38,142 nt of DNA, from positions 1 to 38,142 of the forward strand of contig JBCCQY010000082.1 in the NCBI GenBank assembly GCA_039208735.1, in the 5' to 3' direction. Below are positions 15,136-38,142 of this stretch, one piece after another. Origin of the DNA: Myxococcota bacterium. GTDB lineage: Bacteria; Myxococcota_A; UBA796; GCA-2862545. Position numbers and translations under genes: made by a program. Numbering within the stretch: the first letter of the stretch is position 1; each line of letters begins with the position of its first letter. Under the pieces are notes generated by a model. The model worked only from the letters and a program-made list of their open reading frames with translations. It did not search any database and had not been told where the DNA came from.

Positions 15136-15741
15136 ATGGACGCGACTTGGACCGACGCGACCAACCCTTGGACCCTCTTCGACGCCTGGTACACCGACGC
15201 CCAGGCGAGTGAGCCCGACGTACCCAATGCCATGCAGCTCGCCACGGTGGACGCTTCGGGACAGCCCACCATCCGCACCGTACTGCTCAAAGGGACCTCA
15301 GAGGCTGGTTTACGGTTCTTCACGAACCTCGAGAGTCGCAAAGGCCTCGACCTGGCTGCCAATCCTCGAGCCGCCCTCGTGTTTCACTGGAAGACGAGCA
15401 AGCGCCAGGTCCGGGCTCGGGGCCCGGTCGAACGCCTGCCCAGCGACGAAGCCGATGTATACTGGGCAAGCCGTCCTCGCGGGTCCCAAATCGCAGCCTG
15501 GGCGTCCGCGCAGTCACGACCGTTACCCCACCGCGAGGCGTACGATCAGTCGATTGCCGAAGTCACGGCCCGGTTCGACGCGCAACCCGTTCCCAGGCCT
15601 CCGTTTTGGTCAGGCTACCGCCTGATCCCTGAAGCGCTCGAATTCTGGGAGGATGGCGCGTTTCGGATGCACACTCGACTCTGCTTCACCCGTGCCGATC
15701 TCTCCAGCCCATCCTGGAGCAAAAACCTTCTTTACCCATGA
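15136..15741 (+). CDS. pdxH: Pyridoxamine 5'-phosphate oxidase
   Basis: Motifs NAMQLAT, RTVLLK, FFTNLESRKG, RPRGSQI, WSGYR, EFW..G..RMH.R. Confidence 0.96.
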   Translation: MDATWTDATNPWTLFDAWYTDAQASEPDVPNAMQLATVDASGQPTIRTVLLKGTSEAGLRFFTNLESRKGLDLAANPRAALVFHWKTSKRQVRARGPVERLPSDEADVYWASRPRGSQIAAWASAQSRPLPHREAYDQSIAEVTARFDAQPVPRPPFWSGYRLIPEALEFWEDGAFRMHTRLCFTRADLSSPSWSKNLLYP

Positions 15742-15829
15742 GTCAACGGCCAACTGGTGTAACCGCGGTAGACTGAATTGGACACCGAGGTGCGCCGATG
15801 GAAACGGGGATTGTCGCCTGGAGCAAACG

Positions 15830-17230
15830 ATGGCCCCCCCTTCGGAGATGCCCCTTCGTGTTCTGCTTCTCGACGACCGACCGGCCGAACGTCAGGCCTG
15901 TCAGGAGCAACTGCGCGACCTTGGACACCTCGTCGTCGTTCCTTCGGAGGGGCAACGTCCAAGTCTGGCCGAACACGCCGCCGATGTGGCGTTGCTGCAC
16001 CTAGGATACCGTGGAGCAGAGGGCCTCGACGCGCTGAACCCGTTGCGAGAGGGCGCCCCGATGGTGCCCATCGTGGCCACCGGATCCTCTCCGTGGCCCG
16101 ACTTTGACCTCGCCGTCATCGAGGCGGGAGCCGAGGACTTTCTCCCGGAGCCTCTCGATGCCCATCGGCTGGGCGTCGCCTTGCGCCTTGCGGCCATTCG
16201 TTTCCGCAACCGCACCCCGGCTCCCGTCGAAACGGCACCGCCCGCACGCGGCCGCCTGCATCCGCTTTGGAAACTCGAGCCGGGCACGCATCTCGATCGC
16301 TACGAAGTCGAGCGCATCATTGGACGCGGAGGAATGGCGGTCGTCTACCGGGTACGGCATCGCAAGCTCGGCTCCGTCCACGCGTTGAAAGTCGTGTTGC
16401 CAGACGCCCAGTGCCAACGGCTGATCGTGGAAGGTCAGGCGCAAGCAAGGCTTCGGCATCCCAACCTCGTCCGTGCCACCGACATCCTCGAACTCGGCGA
16501 CGGAGTCGGACTCGTCATGGAGTACGTCGAGGGGCCCACGCTTAGCGACTGGATGGCGAGCGCAACCGCCCCGGCTCGCCAATGGCTGCGCCTGTTTCGC
16601 GGCATCGTTCGCGGCCTACGTCATGCCCACGGCCTAGGCCTTGTGCATCGCGACCTCAAACCCGCCAACGTGCTCCTCCTCGAAACCGACGAGGGGTATG
16701 TGCCCAAGGTGGCAGACTTCGGCATTGCTCGCCTCATGCCGCAAGTCGGGCTTCCGCCCTTGACCGGGGAGCGAACCGGAGGCATCGGAACGGTAGGCTT
16801 CGTCGCCCCTGAACAGTACGCAGATCCCGAAAGTGTCGACCAGCGCGCCGACCTGTTTTCGCTTGGCTGCGTGCTGTACCCCTTGGCCTGCGGCACCCCC
16901 GCATTCCCGGGCCGCGACCCGGCCACGGTGCTCGACGCCATGATGCGTGGCGACTACACCCCGCCCACCCACGTCGTCCCAGAACTAGGGCCCACGTTCG
17001 AGGCCATCATCCACGCACTGCTCCAAGTCGACCCCGAGCACCGCATCAAGGATTGCCAGAGTCTGCTCGAGCAACTCGACGGACTGGACGAAGCCCGGCT
17101 CCCACATCGGCGACCGGGGCTTTCGAATCCCTCGGCCGCATCGACGCTCGACCGGCTTGCCCTCGACGCCCACAGCTCCGCATGGACGACCGGATGGCAG
17201 CCGAAGGTCCCCGAAGGGCCCACGCGCTGA
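15830..17230 (+). CDS. Receiver-like domain fused to a Ser/Thr protein kinase
   Basis: GGAG RBS; REC fold (VLLLDD...AGAEDFL); kinase motifs GRGGMAVV, ALK, HRDLKPAN, DFG, APE. Confidence 0.9.
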   Translation: MAPPSEMPLRVLLLDDRPAERQACQEQLRDLGHLVVVPSEGQRPSLAEHAADVALLHLGYRGAEGLDALNPLREGAPMVPIVATGSSPWPDFDLAVIEAGAEDFLPEPLDAHRLGVALRLAAIRFRNRTPAPVETAPPARGRLHPLWKLEPGTHLDRYEVERIIGRGGMAVVYRVRHRKLGSVHALKVVLPDAQCQRLIVEGQAQARLRHPNLVRATDILELGDGVGLVMEYVEGPTLSDWMASATAPARQWLRLFRGIVRGLRHAHGLGLVHRDLKPANVLLLETDEGYVPKVADFGIARLMPQVGLPPLTGERTGGIGTVGFVAPEQYADPESVDQRADLFSLGCVLYPLACGTPAFPGRDPATVLDAMMRGDYTPPTHVVPELGPTFEAIIHALLQVDPEHRIKDCQSLLEQLDGLDEARLPHRRPGLSNPSAASTLDRLALDAHSSAWTTGWQPKVPEGPTR

Positions 17231-17244
17231 GGTACGATGCGACC

Positions 17245-18216
17245 ATGCCTCCACAGTACGAGATTCGATTGCCGCATGGGGAACACGCCGTTCCCCTGTC
17301 GGACGCACCGCGCACCATCGGCCGGGGCCCCGCAAACGACGTAGTCCTGACCGATGACACCGTGTCTTGGCACCATGCACAGGTCTGGCTCGAAGGCGGA
17401 GACCCGTGGCTACGCGACCTAGGCTCCCGAAACGGCACCTGGCGAAATGACCAACGCGTCACAGGTTCCACGCAGCTTGCGATAGGGGACCGCATTCGCA
17501 TCGGGACGACGGTCGAAGTTGTGCTTTCGGGTCCGGACGATCCGAGAGAGGGGCTCCACAAGGCGTTGCATGTCGAGGACGTGACGTCGGGGGTTCGACT
17601 GCTCGTGCGCGAGAATCGATTCCACATCGGGGGTCGCGAAGATGCCGATTTGCGCATCGAAGGGTGGCCCGATCGAGCCGCCACCATCCTCGTGCATCCC
17701 AACGGGGAGCTGTGGGTCGGCGGCCAGTCCGACGATGGGGAGCGTTGGGAGAAGCAAGTCGAACCTGGTGAAGTGCTCGAGATCCGAGGCCGGACCATCC
17801 GCATCGTCGAGGCCGAAGGCGAACATGCGCCAACCGTCGATCAGGCCGCGTTGGCCTATCCGTACGGGCTGACCGCCACGGCCAACGGGGCCGGCGGGCC
17901 TCAGGTGGTGGTGGAGGATCCCGTGAGCGGTCAGACCTGCCTTGTGACGGGCAACCGGGGGGTGTTGCTCTTTGTGCTCGCCCGTCGCCTCGCCAAGGAC
18001 CGCGAAGCGAGCAAAGCTCCGGCTGAAGAAGGTTGGTGCACCACTCAGGAGGTGCTCACCGGGGTCTGGGGACGGGGCCAGAAGGAAGCCAATCACCTCA
18101 ATGTCCTGGTGCATCGCCTGCGCGGGCAACTAGAAGATCAGGGCTTCGACCCCTGGTTTGTTGAGAAGCGCCGCGGTGGCATCCGCGTCCGTTGTGCCGA
18201 GGTCACCGTGCAATGA
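17245..18216 (+). CDS. FHA-domain protein with a C-terminal OmpR/PhoB-type winged helix
   Basis: FHA motifs IGR, VSWHHA, GSRNGT; C-terminal VWG...NHLNVLVHRLRGQL...RRGGIR. Confidence 0.85.
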   Translation: MPPQYEIRLPHGEHAVPLSDAPRTIGRGPANDVVLTDDTVSWHHAQVWLEGGDPWLRDLGSRNGTWRNDQRVTGSTQLAIGDRIRIGTTVEVVLSGPDDPREGLHKALHVEDVTSGVRLLVRENRFHIGGREDADLRIEGWPDRAATILVHPNGELWVGGQSDDGERWEKQVEPGEVLEIRGRTIRIVEAEGEHAPTVDQAALAYPYGLTATANGAGGPQVVVEDPVSGQTCLVTGNRGVLLFVLARRLAKDREASKAPAEEGWCTTQEVLTGVWGRGQKEANHLNVLVHRLRGQLEDQGFDPWFVEKRRGGIRVRCAEVTVQ

Positions 18217-19091
18217 GTGCACGGCCTGGACGCGTCGTGGCGACGCGGGGCCGGCGGGTGGTGGTGGCCGACGACGAAGGCGAGCGAACCTGCTTCTTAG
18301 CGGGACGTCGTGCGGTGGTCGGCGACCGCGTCCACTGGGTTGAAGCCCGGGGTGAGGGCGGCAAGCTCGTGAGCGTTGGCCCCCGCGAGACCGCTCTGGT
18401 GCGCGCGGATGCCCGAGGTCGCGAGCAGGTGCTTGCCGCCAACCTCACGGGCATCGCCATCATCACCGCCCCCAAGCAGCCCCCGTTCCGAGCGGGACTC
18501 CTCGATCGCTATGTCGTCGCCGCGGCCATCGGTGGGCTGACGAGTTGCGTCGTTCTGAACAAGGTGGACCAAGGCGTCTCCGACGAGGTCGAACGAGCAC
18601 TTCGGGTTCGTGAGGCAGCCGGAGTGGTCGTGTTGCGCACGTCCGTGCCCGATGCGCATGGCATCGACGCCCTCGCCGAGCAATTGCAGGACGGGACCTA
18701 CGCCCTCGTCGGACACAGCGGGGTGGGCAAGACCTCCCTCGCCCAGGCCCTGCTGCCGCAGGTCGACGTCGGAGAGATCGGTGATCTTTCCGAGCATTGG
18801 GGCACTGGACAGCACACGACGACGTCGAGCCGCATCTTTTCGTTGCCCAACGGCGGAGAACTCGTGGATTCTCCTGGAATTCGGACCTTCGCGCCCGGCC
18901 GGTTGAGCGCCAGCGACGTTCGCCAATACTTCCCGATGATGCAGGGGCTCGCCTGCAAGTTCCGTGACTGTCTTCACCGCGAAGGCGAACAGGGCTGTGT
19001 AGCGCCTGACGAGATTGATCCTGATCTTTTGGCATCTTACCGTCGTCTGCTTCACGAGATCATCGCGCTCGACGATCTTCGGGCGCCGTAG
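18213..19091 (+). CDS. rsgA: Ribosome small subunit-dependent GTPase A
   Basis: Circularly permuted G motifs NKVD, GHSGVGKT, HTTT, DSPG; zinc finger CKFRDCLH...GC. Confidence 0.93.
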   Translation: MSARPGRVVATRGRRVVVADDEGERTCFLAGRRAVVGDRVHWVEARGEGGKLVSVGPRETALVRADARGREQVLAANLTGIAIITAPKQPPFRAGLLDRYVVAAAIGGLTSCVVLNKVDQGVSDEVERALRVREAAGVVVLRTSVPDAHGIDALAEQLQDGTYALVGHSGVGKTSLAQALLPQVDVGEIGDLSEHWGTGQHTTTSSRIFSLPNGGELVDSPGIRTFAPGRLSASDVRQYFPMMQGLACKFRDCLHREGEQGCVAPDEIDPDLLASYRRLLHEIIALDDLRAP

Positions 19092-19140
19092 CCACGCTAG
19101 TTCCGCATCCTGTCCCAGAAAGCGTTACCCGAGGGACGGC

Positions 19141-19161
19141 TGAAAATGATTATCGTTTTCA
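19141..19161 (+). promoter_or_regulatory. Fur box
   Basis: TGAAAATGATTATCGTTTTCA is near-palindromic. The core at 19142-19160 matches GATAATGATAATCATTATC at 15/19 positions. It is an AT-rich island immediately before the AGGAG RBS of a TonB-dependent receptor gene. Confidence 0.85.
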
Positions 19162-19174
19162 ATAGGAGCTGGGT

Positions 19175-22100
19175 GTGGAACGCGTCGCGACGTGGCTGCT
19201 CGATCCCTTCGTCGATCCGGCAAGCCGCACCTACTGGGCCTCGCTGTTGGTGGCGGGGGGGATCGCCGGACTCCTTTGGCTGGTGAGCCGACGACGGTTC
19301 TTTGGCCCATCGTTGGGCGATACGCTGCGGCACCCATCCAGCTTGCTCGATGTTCAGCTGCTGGTCGCACGACAACTCTTGCGGGGGCTCGGCGCACTGC
19401 CCGTGATCGGTGCGGGCTTTGGACTCGCCACGTGGCTCGTCCGCCGTCTCGATGCGACCTTCGGCGTGCCCGACCTACAGGCGCCCGCCTGGGTCGTCGT
19501 GCCGCTCTATACCGCGGTCCTCTTCATCGTCTGGGACGCATCACGCTACGTCTTGCACCGCCTCATGCACGAGGTGCCCGCGTTGTGGGCGTTGCATCAA
19601 GTGCACCATTCGGCCGAGGTGATGACCCCACTCACCTTTCACCGAATCCATCCGTTGGAATCGCTCTTGTATGGGCTCCGAGGCTGGTTGGTGACCGCCG
19701 TTGTTGCAGCCGGCTTCTTCTGGGCCTTTCGCGACACCGCGACCATCTGGACCCTCGCGGGCGTTCACGGCGTTGGATTCCTGTTCAATGCGGCGTTTGG
19801 CAACCTGCGCCATAGCCACGTGTGGATCAGCTTTGGGTGGCTCGAACGCATCTTCGTGAGTCCCGCCCAGCACCAGCTGCACCATGCGGTCGGCCAGGAC
19901 CGCTGGAATTACGGCACGTGGCTTTCCATGTGGGATCAGCTCGGTGGCACCTTCGCACCGGCCGTCACCCCACCCCAGCGGCTGGGACTCGTCACCCCCA
20001 ACCATGACCACACCCTCTGGTCGGCGTGGTTCAGCCCCCTTGCGAGCTGGGTCCGGCCTGGGGTCCAAGGGGCGACCGCTGCCGTTGCATTCCTGTTGAC
20101 GAGCACAACGGCGTTCGGCGCGCCGCCTGACCCCGAGGAGACCGACGCGGAGGCTGCGGAGCCCGATGCCCGAATGATCGTCCGCGCCGAGTGGGAAACG
20201 CCTGGGTCGGTGAACGTCGTCGACGAGGCCCAGCTTGCACGGTTCGAACGCGACGACATCGGCGCCGTTCTGGGCAATGTGCCCGGCGTGACCATTCGCG
20301 AAGAGGACGGATTCGGACTTCGCCCGAATATCGGCATTCGCGGGGTGAGTTCGGATCGCTCGTCGAAGATCACGCTGCTCGAAGACGGGGTGCTCCTCGG
20401 TCCCGCGCCCTATTCCGCGCCTGCCGCCTACTACTTCCCCATGGTCACTCGGGTGACTGGCGTAGAGGTCTCCAAAGGGCCCGCCGCCATCCAGAACGGC
20501 CCGTCGACGGTCGGCGGTGCGATCAACCTGTTGTCGCGCGACCTCCCCGAAGGGCCCGCCGCCGCCATCGACCTCGCCGTTGGCCTACGGCGCACGGGCA
20601 AGGTGCACGCCTGGACGGGCACTCAAGGAGAGCATTTCGGCTTCATCGTGGAGGGCGTGGGGCTGCGGACCGACGGCTTCAAGGTCCTCGACGATGGAGG
20701 CCGAACCGGGTTTGACCGTGGTGAAGTGCAGCTCAAGGCCCGTTGGCGCTCGGCATCCAGCGGCTCCCGGACCCAAGCCATCGAACTGAAGCTCGGGTAC
20801 TCGGCCGAACGTTCCTTTGAGACGTATCTGGGCTTGCAAGTTGCAGACTATGCAAACGACCCCTATCGACGGTACGCGGCGACCTCCGAGGCGTTGATGC
20901 GCTGGCGGCGGCTCCTCGCTGAACTTCGCATTCCCGTCCGCATCGACAACGTGCGCATCGAAACCACGGCCTACCATCACGACCTCGAACGGGCGTGGAC
21001 GAAGTTCAACCGCTTTGACAATGGGCCCGACGTGCACGCGTTGCTCGCCAACCCGGTTGGCGGAACCAATGCGGTGTTCCTCGCCATTCTACGCGGCGAA
21101 GAGGACACCACCATCGATGGCCAGCGGCTGCTCATCGGTACCAACGACCGTTCGTTTCTCTCGAGCGGCGTGCAGTCCAAGCTCACCGTGCAACACACCC
21201 TCGGTCGAGCCACGTCGCGCTTCGAAGCCGGGCTGCGACTTCACGCCGACCAGATCACCCGCTTTCATACCGAAGATCCGTTCAATATGATCGACGGCCA
21301 GCTCGTCCGTGATGATGAGGAGACCGACGTCATCGAGGACACAACGTCCTGGGCACGAGCGATTGCCGGCTACGTACACGAGGACCTCATTGCGGGACGT
21401 TGGCACTTCGTGCCGGGCGTGCGCGTTGAATCCATTTGGACCCGACGAGAGCTAGCGGCCAACCCAGACTGGACCCATCAACTCGGCGTGTTGCCAGGGG
21501 TGGGGCTGCTCTACGACGTAACGCCGTCTACCGCGGTCTTCCTCGGCCTTCACCGAGGGTTTTCTCCAGTGGCGCCCGGCTCTCCTCAGGGCACGAGCCC
21601 CGAATCCAGCTGGAACACCGAAGGCGGCTTGCGATGGCGCGGGCCCAAGTCCTCGTTCTCTGCACTTGCCTACGTCAACGACTACATCAACCTTACCGGT
21701 CAATGCTCGTTTAGCGCGGGCTGCGTTGTGGACGCGATCGACCAGCAGTTCAATGCGGGTCGGGTCTGGGTCTACGGGGCCGAGGTTGAAGCCGAGCACG
21801 TCGTGTCCCTCTCGCCGACTCTGGAATTGCCGCTCCGCGCGACCTACACGTGGACCGAAGGGCGTTTCCGAACCGCGTTTGAGTCAGGGTTCCCGCAGTT
21901 CGGTGTGGTCTCGATCGGCGACTACCTGCCCTATGTGGCGCGGCATCAGGCGTCAGCGCAGGTGGGGCTTCGTCACCGTCGGTTCGATGTCGCCGCCTCG
22001 GTTCGCACCCGGAGCCCGATGCTGGACGCGGCCGGTCCATTCGACAGGCCCGAGATTCCGGCCTTGACCGTTCTCGATGTCGCGGCCAACGTGGCGATCT

Positions 22101-22246
22101 CGCGGAACCTCTCGGTCTACGCGACGGGGTCGAACCTCACAAATGCAAGCCCCTTGGTCAGCCTTCGCCCGTTTGGGGCACGGCCCCCCGCCCCGCTGCA
22201 AGTCATGGTTGGGGTAAAGGCGGCTACGGGGCAATCCACAAGGTAG
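19175..22246 (+). CDS. Fusion of a sterol desaturase/fatty-acid hydroxylase family domain and a FecA-like TonB-dependent receptor
   Basis: aa ~1-290 carry His boxes HRLMH, HQVHH, HSH, HQLHH and NYG..WD. From aa ~330: plug (VPGV..EEDGFGLRPNIGIRG, LLEDG, VEVSKGP..GGAINL) and beta-barrel ending in NLTN..RP..P..VMVGVK. Confidence 0.9.
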   Translation: MERVATWLLDPFVDPASRTYWASLLVAGGIAGLLWLVSRRRFFGPSLGDTLRHPSSLLDVQLLVARQLLRGLGALPVIGAGFGLATWLVRRLDATFGVPDLQAPAWVVVPLYTAVLFIVWDASRYVLHRLMHEVPALWALHQVHHSAEVMTPLTFHRIHPLESLLYGLRGWLVTAVVAAGFFWAFRDTATIWTLAGVHGVGFLFNAAFGNLRHSHVWISFGWLERIFVSPAQHQLHHAVGQDRWNYGTWLSMWDQLGGTFAPAVTPPQRLGLVTPNHDHTLWSAWFSPLASWVRPGVQGATAAVAFLLTSTTAFGAPPDPEETDAEAAEPDARMIVRAEWETPGSVNVVDEAQLARFERDDIGAVLGNVPGVTIREEDGFGLRPNIGIRGVSSDRSSKITLLEDGVLLGPAPYSAPAAYYFPMVTRVTGVEVSKGPAAIQNGPSTVGGAINLLSRDLPEGPAAAIDLAVGLRRTGKVHAWTGTQGEHFGFIVEGVGLRTDGFKVLDDGGRTGFDRGEVQLKARWRSASSGSRTQAIELKLGYSAERSFETYLGLQVADYANDPYRRYAATSEALMRWRRLLAELRIPVRIDNVRIETTAYHHDLERAWTKFNRFDNGPDVHALLANPVGGTNAVFLAILRGEEDTTIDGQRLLIGTNDRSFLSSGVQSKLTVQHTLGRATSRFEAGLRLHADQITRFHTEDPFNMIDGQLVRDDEETDVIEDTTSWARAIAGYVHEDLIAGRWHFVPGVRVESIWTRRELAANPDWTHQLGVLPGVGLLYDVTPSTAVFLGLHRGFSPVAPGSPQGTSPESSWNTEGGLRWRGPKSSFSALAYVNDYINLTGQCSFSAGCVVDAIDQQFNAGRVWVYGAEVEAEHVVSLSPTLELPLRATYTWTEGRFRTAFESGFPQFGVVSIGDYLPYVARHQASAQVGLRHRRFDVAASVRTRSPMLDAAGPFDRPEIPALTVLDVAANVAISRNLSVYATGSNLTNASPLVSLRPFGARPPAPLQVMVGVKAATGQSTR

Positions 22247-22907
22247 CCAGACCTCCAAGCGGTCCCATGAATGCTCCTAGGGCCGTCAAAACCATCACCA
22301 ACGCCACGGCGGTCCAGACCATCGGGGAGGCGTTTTGTGTGGGCGCTGGACTCGGCGCATGGGTGCTCGGAATCGAAGCCCGGAGGGCCTCCGCATCGAC
22401 CGAGGGGGTCTGTGACGGGACCTCAACCGTCTCGAGTTCGGGCTGTAGCGCCTCGAGCGTGGCCACCAGGGCCGCCGGAGAGGGGCGAGCTTTGGGGTCG
22501 GCATGGGCTCCGTCTGCGACGACAGATCGCAGCGGCTCGGGCAGATCGTCCCAACGAGGGCTGTCCCCTGCTGCGAGATGCAAGTCGGCCGGCGGCTGGG
22601 CCGTCACCAAGTGGAACAACACCAGTGACAGGGCATAGACGTCACCCGAGGGCGTTGGAGAAGCCCCCGGACGCCGGAGTTCCGGAGCCGTATACGAGCG
22701 TAGGACCAGCTCCGCACGGTCGGATGGCCAATGCAGTTCGAGCCCTTCAGGTCCCTGGACCAGCGTAGTCGGGCTCAACCCGCCACGACCTCGGCCTGCA
22801 GCGTGCGTCTCGGTTAGGGCCGCGAAGGCGTCGAGGACCACCGTCACGGCTTCGGTGGGTGGCAGGGGCCCCACATCGGTCAGGCGCGTCATGAGACCCG
22901 GTACCAC
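22224..22907 (-). CDS. Kinase C-lobe-only pseudokinase with a C-terminal TM helix
   Basis: YTAPE, SGDVYALSLVLFHL and DPKARP are present; Gly-loop, VAIK, HRD and DFG are absent. Start is GTG 22907 or ATG 22892. Confidence 0.7.
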   Translation of the reverse strand: MVPGLMTRLTDVGPLPPTEAVTVVLDAFAALTETHAAGRGRGGLSPTTLVQGPEGLELHWPSDRAELVLRSYTAPELRRPGASPTPSGDVYALSLVLFHLVTAQPPADLHLAAGDSPRWDDLPEPLRSVVADGAHADPKARPSPAALVATLEALQPELETVEVPSQTPSVDAEALRASIPSTHAPSPAPTQNASPMVWTAVALVMVLTALGAFMGPLGGLATLWIAP

Positions 22908-22911
22908 TTCA

Positions 22912-23082
22912 CCCCCCGTGGCGTCTGGCGTGACCGGGTTTCACGAGGGGACCCACGCAATGGATCGGCACGCGGGTTGCGAGTCACCCAGCGTCGCGCG
23001 GACTTCCCTCTCCCGCGCGCCGGACGATCCACGAATGGGCACCCTTGACCTCCGTGGCAACGGCCCACCGACCTACCGAGGA
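22912..23082 (-). ncRNA. Candidate structured RNA (long interrupted stem ending in a three-way junction); family unassigned
   Basis: Nested complementary segments read by eye; G-U pairs favour the minus strand (details in findings). Confidence 0.5.
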
Positions 23083-23139
23083 CAGTTCGTGGCCGACACG
23101 CTTCAGCTTGAACCTTGCGTATCGCTCATCTGCGAGGAG

Positions 23140-23574
23140 CTACCAGCGAGGCTTATAATCCTTGGGCGCGGGTTCGAAACCCGCCTCGTAGGTCGTCACG
23201 AAGCAATGTTGATTGCCATCGACCGGGACCGCCTCGACGTCGTCGCGGTAGGTCACGCTCCACGGGCTATCTCCGTCGACCTCTGCCGAGCAGGTAGCAG
23301 AGCCGAACGTCAGAATGGCGAGTTCAGTGCCGAACAGGGAGCGGTCCCGGTCGTAGAAGAACGACGTGGTCAGTACCCACTGGCCATCCAGGTCACGGTC
23401 GAGAAAGCAAGAACCGTTTTCGGGTGAGCGTGCGCCACCCGTGGCCCAAACCTCGACTTCAACAAGGCCGGGAAGCGATTCGGGCATCGTGAAACAAGGG
23501 TTGGCGTTGTCGACCACTTCCCGGGGAGCGCAGCCCCACAACACCCATAGCAACATCAAAACACTGCGATTCAT
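23140..23574 (-). CDS. Putative lipoprotein
   Basis: GGAGG RBS; MNRSVLMLLWVLWGC lipobox; four further Cys residues. Confidence 0.7.
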   Translation of the reverse strand: MNRSVLMLLWVLWGCAPREVVDNANPCFTMPESLPGLVEVEVWATGGARSPENGSCFLDRDLDGQWVLTTSFFYDRDRSLFGTELAILTFGSATCSAEVDGDSPWSVTYRDDVEAVPVDGNQHCFVTTYEAGFEPAPKDYKPRW

Positions 23575-23670
23575 CGATCCTCCACGGCGAGGGTACCCGA
23601 CGAAATTGCGAATGGGTCATCGCTGTCTTGGCTTGCGACGAATAATTCGGGCCCTGACGACGGAGGCGGC

Positions 23671-23997
23671 ATGAGCCAGCGGGTGTTCGAAGGGGTCGTG
23701 ATCAGCATTGCGCTTGGATTCTTCGCCATCTTCATGGCGGTTGTGGTGCCTCCGCTTCTCGAGCATCCCGATGTCCCTGGCGCGTTTGCTGCGGGATTCG
23801 TGAACCCCTACTCCTCCGGCTATTCCTCCGACGTCATCGCCTGCTGGCTCATCCTCATGGCCTGGGTGGCCTACGAGGCCAAGCATGTTCGCTACGGCTG
23901 GGTTTGCGTGCTGCTTGGGGTCGTGCCTGGCGTCGCGGTGGGCTTGGCGGGCTACCTCGTGTTGCGTGGCCGTCAGCTCCGGGATGCGGCCTCGTGA
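23671..23997 (+). CDS. Small membrane protein (DUF2834-like)
   Basis: GGAGG RBS; three TM segments; FVNPYSSGYSSD and VPGVAVGLAGYL. Confidence 0.75.
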   Translation: MSQRVFEGVVISIALGFFAIFMAVVVPPLLEHPDVPGAFAAGFVNPYSSGYSSDVIACWLILMAWVAYEAKHVRYGWVCVLLGVVPGVAVGLAGYLVLRGRQLRDAAS

Positions 23998-25467
23998 CCG
24001 AATCTGCTCGGCCCCGTCGTGGCAGCTTCGGTCGCGCGTTTGCGTCTTCGGCACTCGGTACTGGACTATCGCGAGGTCTCGGAGCCGCCCGTGAGATCGC
24101 AGTCGCCGCGATCCTGGGCGCATCGATCACCTCAGACGTCTTTCTGACGGCGTTCCTGATTCCGAACCTGTTCCGAAGGTTTGTAGCGGATGAGGGGCTC
24201 ACGGGTGCCTTGCTCCCCGCACTCGCCAAGGCTGAGGCCGAAGGTGGCGAAGAAGAAGCACGACAACTCGCCGCGAGCACTCTTGGGGTGCTCCTCGTCG
24301 TGAACGGAATCCTTTGTGTCATGGGCATGGTTGGAGCCAAGTGGCTGGTGCTGGTCTTTGCCCCGACCTGGCATGACGATCCGGTCAAGATGGCCCTGGC
24401 GATCGACCTGACGCGGTGGCTCTTTCCTTTCTTGACCATGGTCAGCCTTGTCAGTCACTTCGAAGCCTTGCTGAACCATCGAGGGCACTTCTTTGTGCCC
24501 AAAGCCGCGCCTGGGCTGGTGAGCGGAGGCATGGTGGCGAGCGCGCTATTGCTTGGCGATGTTCTTAACGAACCTGTCTATGCCTTGGTCGCAGGGGTGC
24601 TCGTCGGCGGGGTCGCCCACGTACTCGTCCACTTGCCCTTTGTATGGTCCCATTGGGGACCCATAGGTCTGTCGCTTCCCTGAAGGAGCGACCTCCCACT
24701 ACCACTACGGTCTGCGGCTCACGGACCTCGCCCAAGGCATCATTGCCGTCGCCATTGGCTCTGCGTTGTTGCCAAACCTCTCGGGAGCCGTCGCACAGGA
24801 CAATGACACACGATTCCGGACCCAGCTTGTCGGGGGGCTGCGGCTCGCAGGATTCTTGCTCATCCCGACCGCGATTGCGGTTTGGGTATGGGCAGAACCT
24901 TTGCTGGCCCTTTTGTTCCGAGTCGGTCGCTTCACCTGGGCAGACGTCGAAGCTACCGGGTTGGTCGTTCGATACCTCGTGCCGTTCTTGCTGGCGGTGG
25001 CTGGCGCGAACATCGTCAAGCGCGCATTCTATGCCCTCGGCGACCGAGTCACCCTGCTGGTGGTGGGAGCGGGGGGCTTGGTGATGACGGCAGGGCTGGG
25101 GTTCGTTTTGGCTTCCCGCATGGGCATCGCTGGGCTCGCCCTTGCACTTTCCCTTTCCACAGGTGTCCAGTTTTTGGCCTACCTCGTTGTCCTGCATGTT
25201 CGACAGGGCGCGGATTCAGGACTCCCCAACCTTCTCGGTCCATTCCTACGTATGACCCTCGCCGCATTACCGATGGGGGTATGGCTGTATGCACTGTACC
25301 CACTCGGGGATTGGGCGGCGGGCCCTTGGAAATGGGAGAACTGGGCCGTCAGCATCCTAGGCGGAACCGTGGGAGCAGGTCTCTATCTCGCTGTGGCCCA
25401 CGTTCTTGGCATCGACGAGATGGCTACGCTGCGCTCCCGTGCATCCGTGTGGCTTCGAGCGCGCTGA
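23994..25467 (+). pseudogene. murJ: Lipid II flippase MurJ/MviN, disrupted by an internal deletion plus frameshift near 24670-24683
   Basis: 5' part has SRGLGAARE and AFLIPNLFRRFVADEG and ends at GPIGLSLP*. 3' part resumes in another frame as FPEGATSHYHYGLRL..IGSALLP..RAFYA. Confidence 0.85.
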
Positions 25468-25520
25468 AGGACGGTCCTTCCCAGCAAGCCTATGATGCGT
25501 GCATCGATCAGGAGAGAACG

Positions 25521-26474
25521 ATGTTGCTCCTCTGGGCAGTCGCATGCGGGGTCTTCGGTCCCGACTACGGACCTTACAACTCCATTGTCCGCTTGCAGCG
25601 GGCCGCCGTAGAAGCCGCACCGTGTGACGCACCTGCCGTAATGGCGCTTGTCGAGACGCTGGAGAAGGTTGACGTGCCCGCGGCCCTGGAGGTCTACCGC
25701 ACCTACGATGGCGGCTGCGATCCGCGTGAACGGGGATTGACAAGCCAACACGCAGAGCGAGAACGGTCCGATGGCGACCCCGAACGAGCCCTTGCCCTCG
25801 GAGAGCGGCTGTTCGAGGCCAACCCGTCACGCATCCGCGCCCTCTTCATCGCAGAGGTCCTCGACAAGCTCGAGCGGGCCGAACAGGCCTTGGTCTGGCG
25901 TCGACAGGCCGTGGCCCTCGATCCGAAGGACGGGCAAGCGCTCCGCAAGCTGGCCGAGGTCGAGGAGGCGACAGGCAAGCCGTGCTCGGCCTACGTCCGC
26001 TGGCGCCAGCTTTGGGTCGCGGATCGCGACGCTCGCGGAGAGGCCGGTGTGCAAGCCGAGCGGCTCCTCGGGGTGCCCGCCTGTACCGATATGGTCGTGG
26101 CCGGCACCGACACCGTCCGCTCGACGCTTCTCATCCGAGCCTTTGTGTTTCCCATCACGTTCGGCGATTCGTCCATCGACCTCGGTACCGACACCGCGTC
26201 AGCGTGGACCTACGCAACCCACGAGGCGCTAGAAGGCGTGGCCACCGAGGACCTCGGCCAAGAGCTGTCGTTCAAGACCGCGTGGGGCGTGCTGAAAGGA
26301 GACCTGAAGCGGGTGGACCAGCTCCGGATCGGGGCGGTCGAACTCCATGACGTGCAGCTCGTGGCCGTACCCGTCTTGATGGACGGTCTCAAAGGGGCCC
26401 TGGGTCGCAACGTGCTCGCGCGTGTGTCCCTCAGGCGCGAGACCGAGGACCGCTGGACGGTAACCGCTGACTAA
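25521..26474 (+). CDS. Lipoprotein with a TPR-like region and a C-terminal retropepsin-like aspartic protease domain
   Basis: AGGAG RBS; MLLLWAVAC; helical repeats (RQAVALDPKD); DTAS, LRIGAVELHDV and GALGRNVL. Confidence 0.75.
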   Translation: MLLLWAVACGVFGPDYGPYNSIVRLQRAAVEAAPCDAPAVMALVETLEKVDVPAALEVYRTYDGGCDPRERGLTSQHAERERSDGDPERALALGERLFEANPSRIRALFIAEVLDKLERAEQALVWRRQAVALDPKDGQALRKLAEVEEATGKPCSAYVRWRQLWVADRDARGEAGVQAERLLGVPACTDMVVAGTDTVRSTLLIRAFVFPITFGDSSIDLGTDTASAWTYATHEALEGVATEDLGQELSFKTAWGVLKGDLKRVDQLRIGAVELHDVQLVAVPVLMDGLKGALGRNVLARVSLRRETEDRWTVTAD

Positions 26475-32252: not shown

Positions 32253-33326
32253 TTGCGCCGAGACCTCCTCGAGATCGACACCAGCTTCCAGGGATCCCCC
32301 TTCACCCAGCCGGTCGAGGCCCAAGACGTCGAGGCCCTGCGAGTCCTGCTCACCGGAGACTCCGTCATCGACTGGCGTCGCATGGTGTTGCCCGACTACG
32401 CATCGGTCGACCGATTCTTGAGGACTCACCTCATCGATCCTGACGATCCGGCCGATCGGGAACGGCTTCGCTACGTGTTCAACGAAGCGGTCAGCTATCT
32501 CGAAGAGCACCTCCGCATTCGCTTTCCCTCGGAACTGCGCAACCCTCGAGACGTTCGCGACGTCTTTGTCTGGGCCAACCGGTCGGACGGCTTTCGTCGA
32601 ACCCAGATCCTCTCGTGCGTGACGCTCAAACTCATGCACGTGATCTTCCATATGGAAGCCGCGGATCTGAAGTTTCGACTCCCGGTGAGCGAAGCCCAGT
32701 ACCTGCACCTGGCCCACCGTCGAATCCTCGAGCAAGCGGAGCGAATGCGCGAGCTGGGTCTGCCCATCATGGCGTTTTACGGCTCCCGCAAGTCCCGGTC
32801 CGCCATGATCACCAAGCTCCTTGCCAAGAAGAAGGCCGTCGCCGCGACCATCTTCGACAAGCTGCGCTACCGCGTCATCGTGTGTGACCACGACGCCATC
32901 GCGCCTACGCTCGCCTGGCTCTCACGCAACGTGTTTCCGTTCAACTACGTCGTACCAAGCGAATCCTACAACAACCTTCTCGACCCCAACGAGTTGCTCG
33001 TTCATCTCGCCCGCGAGGACGACCGCCAGCTCGTCGAAGACCGCTCGATTCGGTTCGACCGCATCCACACGAAAAACCAGTTTTCGGGCGCCAGCTACCA
33101 AGCGATCAACTGGATTTGCGACTACCCGGTGCGCATTCCCGAGACGGTTGAAAATCCGTTTGCGATGGAACTAGGAAGGGTCATCCACGTCAACGTGGAG
33201 TTCCAGCTTCTCGACCAAGAGACGTCGAAGCGAAACGAAGAAGGCGAGAATGCCCACGGCCTCTACAAGGCACGGCAGCACAAGCAAGTTGCGGCCCGCC
33301 TCAAACGAGGATTCGATTCCGAGTGA
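32253..33326 (+). CDS. TIGR04552-like protein with RelA/SpoT synthetase-type motifs
   Basis: Motifs SVIDWRR, RKSRSAMITKLLAKK, IFDKLRYRVI, YQAIN, VEFQL, NAHGLYK; GGAG before the TTG start. Confidence 0.8.
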   Translation: MRRDLLEIDTSFQGSPFTQPVEAQDVEALRVLLTGDSVIDWRRMVLPDYASVDRFLRTHLIDPDDPADRERLRYVFNEAVSYLEEHLRIRFPSELRNPRDVRDVFVWANRSDGFRRTQILSCVTLKLMHVIFHMEAADLKFRLPVSEAQYLHLAHRRILEQAERMRELGLPIMAFYGSRKSRSAMITKLLAKKKAVAATIFDKLRYRVIVCDHDAIAPTLAWLSRNVFPFNYVVPSESYNNLLDPNELLVHLAREDDRQLVEDRSIRFDRIHTKNQFSGASYQAINWICDYPVRIPETVENPFAMELGRVIHVNVEFQLLDQETSKRNEEGENAHGLYKARQHKQVAARLKRGFDSE

Positions 33327-33396
33327 CGATCCCCTGCGGTTCAGGTCATTCGGAGTTACATTGGCCCGGTCCTTGGGTCCGGATGGGTTGGGAGGC

Positions 33397-35037
33397 ATGG
33401 TGAAGCCACTGTGGCTGAGCACGGCATTGTTGTTTACAGCGTGCAACGGTTCAAATGGGCCGGTTTGTGACCAGAGCGAGCTGCTCGACGGCTATACCGA
33501 CGCCGACGGAGATGGTTTCGGTTCGAATTTGAGCGAAGTCATCCAGTTCTGCCCTGGTTTTGGTGATGGCTTGTCGCTTTCGCCGCTCGACTGCAACGAC
33601 GAAGATGCAGCGATCAATCCCGATGCAGTCGAACTCTGCAACGGCATCGATGACGACTGCGATGGCGTCCGGGATCAAGGCTTTGACAACCGGGTGTATT
33701 ACCCCGATGCCGATGATGACGGCTTCGGCGCGCGCTACCCGGCCGAATACTCCTGCATCCCGCTGGAGGGTCATGTCCAGAACAACACGGACTGTGACGA
33801 CTCCGACCCCTTCGTCAACCCTGGGTCCCCCGAGATCTGCAACGGCGGCATCGACGACAACTGCAACGGCCTGTCGGACGACACAGACCCGCAGGTTCTC
33901 GAAAGCTCGAAGCTAACGTTCTACCTCGACGCTGACGCCGATGGGTTTGGAGACCCCGACGCATCCTTCGAGGCTTGCCAGCCCCAGTCGAACTGGTCGA
34001 CCAACTTCGACGACTGCGACGATGGCAACCAGGCCATCAATCCAAACGCGACCGAAATCTGCAACATGCGCGACGACGACTGCGACCTGCTGTCCGACGA
34101 CGCCGACCCCTCGATCGACCCGAACAGTCAGATCGATGTCTTCATCGATGCGGACTTTGACGGCTTCGGCAACCCGGCTTCGCCTTCGCTTGCTTGCTTC
34201 GTCGACTTCGGAACGTCCGACAACGGCGACGACTGCAACGACAACAACTTCGACATCAACCCCGGCGTCATCGACGTGTGCAACTTCGGGATTGACGACG
34301 ACTGCGACCCGACCACCGCTGAAGACGACGTGTCGGGGCTCGGCTACTACGTCGACACCGACGGCGACGGGTACGGCGACACCTCAACCGAAATCCTGTC
34401 GTGCACGCCCATCGCCAATCGCGTCGTTCTCCCCGACGATTGCAACGAAAGCGACACCGGTATCAACCCTGGCATCGAAGACGTCTGCGAAGACGGCGTT
34501 GACCAGGATTGCACCGGCTCCGATGCGCGCTGCCGCTCCGCGTTCGAAGTCAGCAACCAGATCCTCGCCTTCACGATCAACAACTCGATGCGTGGCGTGG
34601 TCCTCGAACCGACCGAGGATGGCCTGGTCATCGACTTCGGCATCAAAGCGACGCTGAGCGACGCTTGCGAGCTCGACTACTACATTTGGCAGCGGCCCGA
34701 CGACAATTCACCGTGGAGCTTGCTCACCTCGGATCAGGTCTTGCACGAGCCGGCCACCGAGGTCTTCTTCAACTCAGGCGAACTCGACGTGGTCGTGACC
34801 GCGGGCACCCAGGTGGGCTACGGCGTCGCGTGGAACAACTGCCCCACGTCGGTGCGGGTCTTCACCGCGACCAACAACAATGTAGGCACGTTCGAACTCG
34901 GCGATTGGGTGGGGTGGGTCCGCGAGACCAACAACTATTCGGGCTTCAACGTGGCTTATACGCCACCTGAGTTCCTGACGTCCAGCGCCAATGTTCCGAA
35001 CATGGAAATCGGCTACAGCACGAGCTTCGTTCCGTAG
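33397..35037 (+). CDS. Lipoprotein with five MopE-like putative metal-binding Cys/Asp repeats
   Basis: LLFTAC lipobox; repeated DxDxDGFG...DCxDxxxxxNPxxxExCNxxDDDC; beta-rich C-terminal domain. Confidence 0.88.
   Translation: MVKPLWLSTALLFTACNGSNGPVCDQSELLDGYTDADGDGFGSNLSEVIQFCPGFGDGLSLSPLDCNDEDAAINPDAVELCNGIDDDCDGVRDQGFDNRVYYPDADDDGFGARYPAEYSCIPLEGHVQNNTDCDDSDPFVNPGSPEICNGGIDDNCNGLSDDTDPQVLESSKLTFYLDADADGFGDPDASFEACQPQSNWSTNFDDCDDGNQAINPNATEICNMRDDDCDLLSDDADPSIDPNSQIDVFIDADFDGFGNPASPSLACFVDFGTSDNGDDCNDNNFDINPGVIDVCNFGIDDDCDPTTAEDDVSGLGYYVDTDGDGYGDTSTEILSCTPIANRVVLPDDCNESDTGINPGIEDVCEDGVDQDCTGSDARCRSAFEVSNQILAFTINNSMRGVVLEPTEDGLVIDFGIKATLSDACELDYYIWQRPDDNSPWSLLTSDQVLHEPATEVFFNSGELDVVVTAGTQVGYGVAWNNCPTSVRVFTATNNNVGTFELGDWVGWVRETNNYSGFNVAYTPPEFLTSSANVPNMEIGYSTSFVP
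33493..34525 (+). repeat. Five ~65-75 aa Asp/Cys-rich coding repeats
   Basis: Units begin YTDADGDGFG, YPDADDDGFG, YLDADADGFG, FIDADFDGFG, YVDTDGDGYG. Confidence 0.85.
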
Positions 35038-35508: not shown

Positions 35509-36708
35509 TCACGGTACCAAATCCGCAAGGTCGACGGGTGAAGCAGCTTGCGGCTTCGTGAATGCCGCCTCTCTTCGAGCCTTGTAGTAGCCGAGGAGCG
35601 CCCGATGAAAGGCGCCTTGGTCATACCGCGTCACCACTCGCTCGCGGGACCGAGTCGCCATGGCCGCCCGGCGATCACCGGACTCCAGCTGGCCGAGCGC
35701 CCGAACCAGCGGCGTGACGGTCTTCGCCGGAACGAGGCGTCCGTTCTCTCCGTCGACGATCACCTCGTTGCAACCATTGATGTTCGAAGCGATCGCCGGC
35801 AAGCCCATGGCCCCCGCTTCCAGAAGAGAGTTGGGCAGCCCTTCGCGGTAGCTAGGCAAGACGAAGACATCTGCCGCCGCCAGATAGGGGCGAACGTCGG
35901 GTTGAAAGCCTACACATTGAATGCCTGCCCCCGTCAGCCGGTCCTGGGTCTCTGGCGGCAAAGGATCGAGGTCGGGCTCTGGGGCGCCCACGAAGACCAA
36001 ATGGCGGTCCGATCGGTCCCCCCGCCAGCGATGGAACGCCTCGACAAGCTCGACGACCCCTTTGTCACGAACCATGCGGCCGACGAAGAGGAGGGCCAGG
36101 TCGTCAGGACCCAGGCCCAACCGACCTCGGGTCTCGCGCCGCAACCGGCCATCGGGCGCCCAATGGGCGGTATCGATGCCATTGATCGACCCGTGGCCCA
36201 CCACATCGATCGGTCGGGCGGTGAGGTGGGCGTGAACCCAGTCCCGCAACCCGTAGCTGTTGCAGGTGAGGTCGGTAGCCGCGGCGTACGTGAGCCGTTC
36301 GGTGGCTTGCAACACGATCTTGCGGAGCTTGCGCGCTTCCATCAGGGGCATGCCTACAATGCCATGCACCCGAACCGGAACGCCCGCCGCCCGCGCGGCG
36401 ATCATGCCCACAAGACCCGCCTTTGGCGTGTAGGTCTGCACGATCGATGGAGCGAGACGTCGCAGGAGCGCCACGAGCCGAATCAGGGCTCGAGCGTCTG
36501 TCCACGGGGCAATGCGCCGAGGCAAGGGGACCTGAAGAATCGGCACGCCCTCGCGCGTCGCAATCCGGTTCAGATCTTCTGGGTGTTCGGGGGGAGAGGT
36601 CACAAGCGTCACGTCGAAGTGCTTGGCCAGCCACCGGGGCTGCCCTTCAAGCAGATTGTCGAGCGTGGCCGTGACCGATGTGAGGATCACGAGTTTGGCA
36701 CGCGTCAT
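35509..36708 (-). CDS. Glycosyltransferase family 4
   Basis: Motifs TYTPKAG, FVGRMVRDKG, LPSYREGLPNSLLEA, NGCNE. Confidence 0.93.
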   Translation of the reverse strand: MTRAKLVILTSVTATLDNLLEGQPRWLAKHFDVTLVTSPPEHPEDLNRIATREGVPILQVPLPRRIAPWTDARALIRLVALLRRLAPSIVQTYTPKAGLVGMIAARAAGVPVRVHGIVGMPLMEARKLRKIVLQATERLTYAAATDLTCNSYGLRDWVHAHLTARPIDVVGHGSINGIDTAHWAPDGRLRRETRGRLGLGPDDLALLFVGRMVRDKGVVELVEAFHRWRGDRSDRHLVFVGAPEPDLDPLPPETQDRLTGAGIQCVGFQPDVRPYLAAADVFVLPSYREGLPNSLLEAGAMGLPAIASNINGCNEVIVDGENGRLVPAKTVTPLVRALGQLESGDRRAAMATRSRERVVTRYDQGAFHRALLGYYKARREAAFTKPQAASPVDLADLVP

Positions 36709-37514
36709 GTCAGCACCTGCTCGACCACCCACCCCTCGACGCTCACAAAGCCATCGGGGTCAACGATCTGCCTCAGTCGGGTCACATCGGCGATGGACAT
36801 TCGGATTTCCTGACGCGGTCGATTCGTTGTGGAGAGGCAAACCCCCCGAATGGCCAGCGCATCAACGAGGCTTCGCACCGACACCCCAACACCACTCGCA
36901 ACATTGACGATCTCAAGGTCGGAGCGTGCCAATGCGCCGTAGCAGCGCACCACATCGCGAATGTGGATGAAATCCCGGATCGCATGCCCTCCATTGACGA
37001 GGCCAAAGGTCTGCGCTTCCCGTGCCGCAGCGACGATCTTGGAAACCACCGAGAAGTGGTCATCGCCCCCATACAGGTTGAAGAGACGTGCGATGCTCGC
37101 GGACCATCCCTGCCGTTGGGCCACCTTCAGGACAAGGTCCTCATTGGCCACTTTGAGGCCAGCGTGCAGACCAGCGGCACGGGGGCGGTCCGCCTCGCGA
37201 CACTCCTTGCTGTCGCCGTAGACGGCCGCACTGCTGGTGTAGATGAGCTTTTCAACCCGCCGTTCCGCCAACCAGTCCAGGATCGACGCGGTCGCTCCAA
37301 TCGCGCGGGCGACGTACCCCTGCGGATCGGAGGTGTCGCCAAGCGCCACCGCGGGCTGAAAGTGGTTGAGCACCACCAACAGCGGTGTCTCGCGGGCAAG
37401 GTCAGGAAAGCGCCCTTCGACGACGTCTCGCACCGACCACGCGAGCGCCCCGGGCCAGGCCATGGCCAGTTGACGGCTGAGATTGCTGGCTCGACCGAAG
37501 ATCAATGGGGTCAT
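36705..37514 (-). CDS. NAD-dependent epimerase/dehydratase-like extended SDR with atypical motifs
   Basis: Motifs YTSSAAVYG, RLFNLYG, RDFIHIRD, NVASG; ATGA overlaps on both sides. Confidence 0.85.
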   Translation of the reverse strand: MTPLIFGRASNLSRQLAMAWPGALAWSVRDVVEGRFPDLARETPLLVVLNHFQPAVALGDTSDPQGYVARAIGATASILDWLAERRVEKLIYTSSAAVYGDSKECREADRPRAAGLHAGLKVANEDLVLKVAQRQGWSASIARLFNLYGGDDHFSVVSKIVAAAREAQTFGLVNGGHAIRDFIHIRDVVRCYGALARSDLEIVNVASGVGVSVRSLVDALAIRGVCLSTTNRPRQEIRMSIADVTRLRQIVDPDGFVSVEGWVVEQVLT

Positions 37515-38142
37515 GCAGCACGTGCCCGAAGGTCAGAGGTCCGGGTCCGCGCCACCTTCGGAGGCGGCATGGCGACCAAGACCAAGAAGACGGCAAAGAA
37601 GGGCACGAGCGGCATGCGGTAGCGCGACAGGGTGCCCAAGTTCGCGGCGGTCAGACCGACCGCTACGCCAAACACGACCACGAAGCTGACGCACATGGCC
37701 ACGATGGGGTAGCGGCTCAATAAATCACCGAGCGTCCCCAAACGCCGCGACCATACGGCCCGCGCCGTCAACCCAGCGAACGCCAAGGTCTCGATTCCGT
37801 TCACCACCATCTGAGGGTTGTAGGCCTCAAAAAGGAAGGGCCGGTACAACGCGGTCAGCAGGGCAAACGGCGCAAATGCGAACTGCCCGATGAGGCTTCG
37901 CTGGCTCGGATCGCCGATCACGTAGGTCGATCCGCCCTTCGGATTGTAGCTGGCCGCCTGCAGCCGCGCGGTCTCCTCTCCAAGTCGTTCAAGCGAGAAC
38001 CTTGGGAAGATCTCACCGATCAGCACGAACGCCGCGACCGCGCCTCCCGCACCAATGAGCAAGGGCACGGGCCGAACCTCGAGGCGTCCACGGCGGGCGG
38101 CTTGCTTCACGTACAGGTAAACGCCCGAGGCCCCCGTGAGCC
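37511..38142 (-). CDS. Multi-pass membrane protein of a polysaccharide locus, possibly a Wzy-type polymerase (5'-truncated)
   Basis: Frame is open to the window end; motifs GGS, LYRPFLFEA, NLGTLSRYR; co-oriented with the epimerase and GT4. Confidence 0.7.
   Translation of the reverse strand, partial: LTGASGVYLYVKQAARRGRLEVRPVPLLIGAGGAVAAFVLIGEIFPRFSLERLGEETARLQAASYNPKGGSTYVIGDPSQRSLIGQFAFAPFALLTALYRPFLFEAYNPQMVVNGIETLAFAGLTARAVWSRRLGTLGDLLSRYPIVAMCVSFVVVFGVAVGLTAANLGTLSRYRMPLVPFFAVFLVLVAMPPPKVARTRTSDLRARAA

Follow-up and report, generated by a model that had tools for sequence, protein, structure and literature searches.

How can a single gene serve both an enzyme of the inner membrane and a receptor of the outer membrane? 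The question is raised by one open reading frame (ORF) in a 38,142-nucleotide stretch of DNA from a Myxococcota bacterium (GenBank assembly GCA_039208735.1, contig JBCCQY010000082.1), the whole of which we call the window. An earlier, sequence-only reading of this DNA had described an ORF joining a desaturase/hydroxylase domain to a TonB-dependent receptor through a linker resembling a signal peptide, and had proposed that signal peptidase I (SPase I) cuts the chain into a 1:1 pair. The accepted view is that an outer-membrane barrel is synthesized with a short N-terminal signal peptide. Our analysis argues for the proposal: we give a probability of about 0.8 to a His-box di-metal enzyme and a TonB receptor being made on one chain that is cut by SPase I after Gly315. 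Judged from its sequence, the gene is most likely a polyprotein gene, a single ORF predicted to specify two proteins that elsewhere come from separate genes.

The frame is open throughout, running on the plus strand from a GTG start at 19175 to 22246 (1023 aa), and every domain claimed for it was recovered. Pfam places FA_hydroxylase (PF04116) at aa 114-259 (E 2e-24, 86.9 bits against a cut-off of 31), Plug at aa 341-449 (58.5 bits against 23.9) and the TonB barrel at aa 596-988 (110.3 bits against 27), so that the receptor is, as had been described, a full plug-plus-barrel protein. The complete set of His boxes announced by the sequence-only reading is likewise there: H128xxxH132, H141xxH144H145, H159, H213 and H233xxH236H237, together with N245-x-G-x5-WD, all invariant across the 40 rows of alignment A1. 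All 118 of 118 full-length proteins have boxes 1-2, and the same holds for the last box and for the N..WD motif; the middle motifs occur in 114-115 of the 118. Compared with PDB sequences, the enzyme domain had chance matches only (E of at least 0.42), a profile search of solved structures found receptors only, and the Atlas matches were FA_hydroxylase clusters only. The junction, where the sequence-only reading had asked for a check of read coverage, is crossed without indel or stop by a Logan contig of run X1, which covers 18500-25600 and shows 0 differences and 0 gaps. This DNA may itself come from X1, so the contig is not independent evidence; independent support is given by the homologues. 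Runs X2 and X3 yielded fragments of relatives only.

The fusion is a real family and not an artefact. Among the best 120 of 1247 matches, all three Pfam domains occur in 118 of the 119 non-self proteins, at 46-74% identity, which answers the earlier call to look for other proteins uniting FA_hydroxylase with Plug and TonB domains; the named fused homologues in this set are mostly labelled Myxococcota or generic proteobacterial metagenome-assembled genomes. When the enzyme domain alone is used, Plug is present in 120/120 of the longer homologues among the matches listed, and no fusion partner other than a receptor was found among those 120. Databases label the fused proteins simply TonB receptors, which is why the enzyme half has been missed. 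Within the class to which the window belongs, a match at E <= 1e-45 is found in 88 of 153 genomes. The fusion is present in 64 of the 78 class genomes whose loci were fetched, across 6 families, in a sample fetched best match first and hence biased toward fused forms, and drawn from genomes akin to one another, so that the counts are not independent. The other fetched class genomes have adjacent halves in different frames (5, namely 4 coupled gene pairs and 1 probable frameshift), halves at separate places (5) or an incomplete or receptor-only locus (4). Fusions also occur outside the clade (L028, L030, L047 and L055). Stops flagged in two genomes (G014, G028) leave the fusion intact, each locus being one frame, and apparent frameshifts in the linker of L125 and in the barrels of L020 and L161 are possible assembly errors, which we excluded from the true splits. 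The proposed 1:1 pair is therefore weakened: a fixed stoichiometry is not needed, because in at least 9 of the 78 class genomes enzyme and receptor are two genes, which in 5 of these genomes lie apart.

The evidence for processing lies in the junction. In the 1023-aa protein it comprises R294, a hydrophobic core (h-core) AAVAFLL at 302-308, and A313-F314-G315 followed by A316, with a predicted cut after nucleotide 20119; the basic residue, core, A-x-G and position are all as the sequence-only reading gave them. We parsed 170 of 191 fused sequences (21 fell outside the pattern) into 152 unique junctions and called cut sites by a simple rule rather than a trained predictor. Ala-x-Ala stands at the acidic boundary in 105/152 junctions, compared with 31.6 +/- 4.7 after shuffling of the 16 residues before it (maximum 51 in 2000 shuffles), and small-x-small in 134, against 77.8 in the shuffles. 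The n-region is net positive in 148 junctions, the h-core is short (median 7-residue hydropathy 2.95), and the 12 residues after the boundary have a median charge of -6. The same A-x-A rule finds 38/81 N-termini of unfused receptors, some of whose windows are misplaced, and these receptors carry the same kind of acidic segment. Column identity is 0.64 in the enzyme, drops to 0.33 in the signal and reaches 0.83 in the plug: across fused homologues, where the linker's conservation had been in question, its character is kept and not its letters. By these features the linker is a predicted internal n/h/c signal with small residues at -3 and -1. This genome contains SPase I genes, and a review describes outer-membrane proteins as released by SPase I at an AXA motif (PMC13067283).

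What can be read directly is one ORF with intact domains and a linker of conserved character; the subsequent steps are a model. From the topology of its family, the enzyme would insert so that its His boxes and its C-terminus face the cytoplasm, and the linker would then lie N-in/C-out like an ordinary signal peptide, threading the receptor into the periplasm. SPase I would cut at the A-x-A/G site, the used signal remaining as the last helix of the enzyme while the receptor proceeds to the outer membrane. Iron starvation would derepress the gene, and its product may work with DUF4856 and imelysin proteins in iron uptake. In the least certain step, which we hold only tentatively, the enzyme would share the job of the HTTM protein that replaces it elsewhere. 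The topology agrees with hydropathy, which marks segments near aa 20-38, 62-88, 105-122, 164-184 and 191-209 and no hydrophobic segment between the last His box and the linker. In the sterol-desaturase superfamily the His boxes face the cytoplasm; with no hydrophobic segment intervening, the linker would therefore start in the cytoplasm, as a signal must. Among 80 genome loci, a desaturase directly upstream of the receptor is fused to it in 7/7 cases, whereas fusion is seen in 0/21 cases where that position is taken by an HTTM protein, whose C-terminal part is a Pfam 'lumenal domain'. In these related genomes the contrast is a matter of consistency with the topology and not a statistical test.

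Several observations weigh against cleavage by SPase I of a single chain. A-x-A is missing, by the rule used, in 47/152 junctions, and 58/152 contain a 19-residue window with the hydropathy of a membrane helix. In this gene the site is A-F-G instead of A-x-A, with prolines at +2 and +3. At least one in-frame start codon precedes the h-core in 48/59 fused loci with DNA, equal to the background of 80%. The topology is based on hydropathy and family knowledge, and the fetching order and kinship of the compared genomes, given above, belong on the same side. So does the receptor's C-terminus, which lacks the aromatic beta-signal residue and ends in a short tail. An aromatic C-terminus occurs in 2/63 fused rows, in 48/84 unfused rows overall and in 12/27 plug genes of this genome (15/27 end without one); its loss is nevertheless a lineage trait rather than an effect of fusion, because unfused rows of the same clade likewise end aromatic in 0/15 cases.

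Best placed among the alternatives, and still improbable, is a second start: the receptor would be translated from an in-frame, possibly non-standard start inside the junction, with the read-through form as a by-product. The sequence-only reading had seen no in-frame ATG or GTG between the last desaturase motif and the signal-like segment, and we agree; TTG is absent as well, there being none of the three in the 25-26 codons up to the h-core, and the nearest in-frame starts in this gene are the ATG of M252, inside a desaturase motif, and a TTG inside the h-region. Ten other loci share this lack (11/59 fused loci with DNA, this gene included, over 26 codons). The ATG, GTG or TTG codons that the other 48 do have in those 26 codons favor a second start, as does the fact that split relatives begin their receptor by overlapping starts at this same spot. 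Against these stand a codon rate no higher than background, the lack of any conserved internal start position across the 59 loci (a test that covers standard codons only), a start led by a Shine-Dalgarno-like site in 4/59 loci versus 13% in the background, and a Met in just 24/152 junctions. Moreover, with two starts the enzyme would still exist only as the full fusion.

It is about as improbable that the linker is an uncleaved sixth membrane helix, the protein bridging both membranes permanently or leaving its barrel unfolded at the inner membrane. The helix-like windows, whose 19-residue mean hydropathy reaches 1.6, would suit such a helix, and certain acidic linkers, of up to about 100 residues or more, would suit a bridge. 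The distance from the cut site to the TonB-box-like motif is, however, at most 20 residues in 51/117 members and 4-9 residues in 6 (two other short values are mis-calls). The periplasm is about 15-25 nm wide, and spacers of 4-9 residues are therefore too short for an uncleaved tether across it. The A-x-A enrichment, a basic or polar residue at position -2 in 87/141, the presence of the same acidic segments in unfused receptors and the 5 genomes that encode the halves apart also speak against a permanent helix.

Relatives in which the halves are split show where the two proteins part. In L021, L023, L134 and L135 the enzyme ends a few residues past the conserved LLSAWxGP-type segment, and the receptor, with its own short signal peptide, starts with an overlap of 1-4 nt. 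In the receptor tree (FastTree, midpoint-rooted, with weak deep support) split and fully separated pairs sit singly among fused neighbors, with 11 state changes in all. We read this as repeated fission of a fused gene, the direction being our interpretation of the tree; repeated fission fits, because the products would work apart.

If the chain is cut, a protease other than SPase I (for example an intramembrane protease), or a site other than 315/316, is a more distant prospect still: the A-F-G site with its prolines and the simple rule for calling sites leave some room for it, while the small residues at -3 and -1 across the family fit the SPase I rule given in PMC13067283. That the ORF is an assembly artefact or a dead gene may be dismissed, for all that the window carries another broken gene (murJ) and the assembly is fragmented into 288 contigs, given more than 100 independent fused proteins at 46-72% identity and the conservation of catalytic histidines and plug.

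Coordinates of the fused ORF, its predicted parts and its upstream signals (positions in the window)
Feature	Position	Strand	Basis
Near-palindromic Fur-like operator, 14 nt before start codon	19141..19161	.	sequence
Ribosome-binding site AGGAG	19164..19168	+	sequence; precedes GTG at 19175
Entire fused ORF, 1023 aa	19175..22246	+	ORF call and Pfam
FA_hydroxylase/sterol-desaturase-family inner-membrane domain, aa 1-280; about 5 hydrophobic segments, His boxes complete	19175..20014	+	Pfam, alignment, hydropathy
Conserved C-terminal amphipathic segment of the enzyme, aa 281-293; family pattern LLSAWxGP	20015..20053	+	alignment, split relatives
Putative internal Sec/SPase I-type signal, aa 294-315; basic residue, h-core, A-x-G; predicted cut G315/A316	20054..20119	+	junction analysis
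Acidic N-terminal segment of predicted mature receptor, aa 316-333	20120..20173	+	junction analysis
TonB-box-like motif MIVRA, aa 334-338	20174..20188	+	position and family pattern
Plug domain, aa 341-449	20195..20521	+	Pfam; best-conserved part, mean column identity 0.83
Beta-barrel of FecA-related TonB-dependent receptor; C-terminal aromatic residue absent	20522..22246	+	Pfam, profile searches

What the predicted pair might do is suggested by its context. Just ahead of the gene lies an inverted repeat which we take to be Fur-like from its resemblance to such operators. Sites like it number 48 in the genome versus 0, 0 and 0 in three block shuffles, with a pattern built from this very site; they lie within 700 nt upstream of 7/26 other TonB-plug genes and before a DUF4856-imelysin pair on contig C50. 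By its operator the fusion gene is placed in a Fur-like regulon whose regulator is putative, and the genome has 4 Fur-family genes. The 48 boxes cluster on contigs C6, C21, C29 and C148, outlining a large iron regulon. A scan for promoters and terminators gave signal no better than chance. In this genome no module partner accompanies the fusion, which follows rsgA and has its own inverted repeat; in relatives the order is DUF4856, imelysin and then the fusion. Imelysins have been linked to Fur-controlled iron uptake (PMC3143127). The role in iron handling that the sequence-only reading had suggested thus gains comparative support from the Fur-like box and the imelysin/DUF4856 setting.

The receptor's membrane-enzyme partner alternates between two types. 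Across the 80 loci, 35 have HTTM only, 28 a desaturase only, 17 neither and 0 both, and on the tree the desaturase/HTTM switch has occurred at least 5 times; for example, the sisters of L039 (L034, L044 and L049) carry HTTM, but L039 itself carries a desaturase in that place. This exclusion points to two unrelated enzymes doing one job, and it suggests that desaturase and HTTM protein could share a task in iron uptake. On the other side of the balance, this genome has the desaturase fusion as well as an HTTM-imelysin locus on contig C51, so the exclusion holds per locus and not per genome. That second module (C51, about 17300-22200) has an HTTM (vitamin-K-carboxylase-like) gene, imelysin-like genes and a Fur-like box. 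A preprint (10.64898/2026.08.19.745780) notes that vitamin K-dependent carboxylase has an HTTM domain, as does MloH, a carboxylase of bacteria. Because both interchangeable enzyme families add oxygen-rich groups, we tentatively favor an HTTM-equivalent enzyme, most likely one whose O2-dependent chemistry attaches an iron-binding group to a substrate held in the membrane. About as likely, and likewise speculative, is an enzyme that moves or reduces iron at the inner membrane, a role we keep open because an ABC ATPase (7/105 loci) is the only transporter part that recurs in the neighborhoods. Plain lipid remodeling is only slightly less likely.

Known systems resemble the fusion in parts. FbcH of Bradyrhizobium japonicum, the cytochrome b/c1 precursor, may be the nearest precedent: there too one gene specifies a polytopic inner-membrane protein, then an internal signal that is cleaved, then another exported protein. 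Both FbcH products remain in the inner membrane, where they belong to a single complex, whereas here the second product would be an outer-membrane barrel, and the two are not known to form a complex. Close homologues of both halves exist as two genes in Pseudoalteromonas, Colwellia, Thalassotalea, Salinimonas, Zhongshania and others, which share DUF4856, imelysin, receptor and desaturase; in that form, the desaturase lies downstream of the receptor, each has its own start, and the receptor has an N-terminal signal peptide. In marine gammaproteobacteria the four separate genes run in the order DUF4856, imelysin, receptor, desaturase. FecA is the best solved relative of the receptor (E 1.6e-36 with a profile), and homologues carry the annotation 'Fe(3+) dicitrate transport protein' in their source records, but the score of 69 bits is far from the NCBIfam equivalog cut-off of 1100, and the N-terminal part of the fusion is an enzyme rather than a signaling domain. 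The enzyme shares the PF04116 domain and His boxes with the sterol desaturase family and with the ornithine lipid hydroxylase OlsE, but on the OlsE model reaches 37.9 bits against an equivalog cut-off of 475 and is embedded in an iron-uptake module. The imelysin/IrpA operons resemble the present loci in their imelysin partner and Fur-like control; here the partners are DUF4856 or DUF5122, a receptor and a desaturase or HTTM protein, and neither 'TonB' nor 'desaturase' occurs in the accessible part of that account (PMC3143127). In the literature searched, which left subscription papers mostly outside, we found no description of an enzyme-receptor polyprotein or of a desaturase in imelysin operons, and DUF4856 had 0 occurrences in the 30 of 40 papers listed by one search.

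The fusion thus likely extends signal-peptidase-processed polyproteins to an outer-membrane barrel placed behind an enzyme. If our reading holds, a membrane enzyme of about 315 residues serves as the signal of a barrel, and Sec insertion, barrel export and signal peptidase cleavage all take place on one chain. A sterol-desaturase-family protein is also linked to iron uptake by the fusion, and the finding that an HTTM/vitamin-K-carboxylase homologue can take its place offers a handle on two families of poorly known bacterial role. A bolder combination, put forward with less confidence, would make the barrel a cleavable tail of a polytopic enzyme throughout the class, the enzyme being one of two unrelated, interchangeable types (di-metal hydroxylase or vitamin-K-carboxylase homologue) that would add a chemical step not yet described to a widespread DUF4856-imelysin-receptor iron uptake, plausibly by making the iron-binding ligand. 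Knockouts are within reach because cultured Pseudoalteromonas, Colwellia and Myxococcus have the two-gene form.

Other features of the receptor, the module and the window deserve mention. Two cysteines invariant in alignment A1, C844 and C850 (near nt 21704-21724, in the region 20696-21745), form a CxxxxxC barrel loop that is possibly a disulfide or a metal site. In many myxobacteria a DUF5122 beta-propeller replaces DUF4856 in the imelysin-receptor module (L032-L034, L039, L044, L049, L063, L070, L071, L076 and others). Directly upstream of the fusion, at 15653-19091 on the same strand, lie a receiver-domain Ser/Thr kinase, an FHA and winged-helix regulator and rsgA, which are not among its conserved neighbors in relatives. 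Downstream, a second murJ copy at 23955-25467 is broken, with profile positions 1-180 and 227-431 in different frames and about 46 missing; the contig of run X1 shows the same broken copy, and an intact murJ is present on contig C69. On the minus strand at 36705-38110, an NAD-dependent epimerase match starts at profile position 82 in a 269-aa ORF whose start overlaps an upstream 199-aa ORF without a Pfam match, and the two may be a split gene. A 595-aa protein encoded at 33250-35037 carries five MopE-type putative metal-binding repeats.

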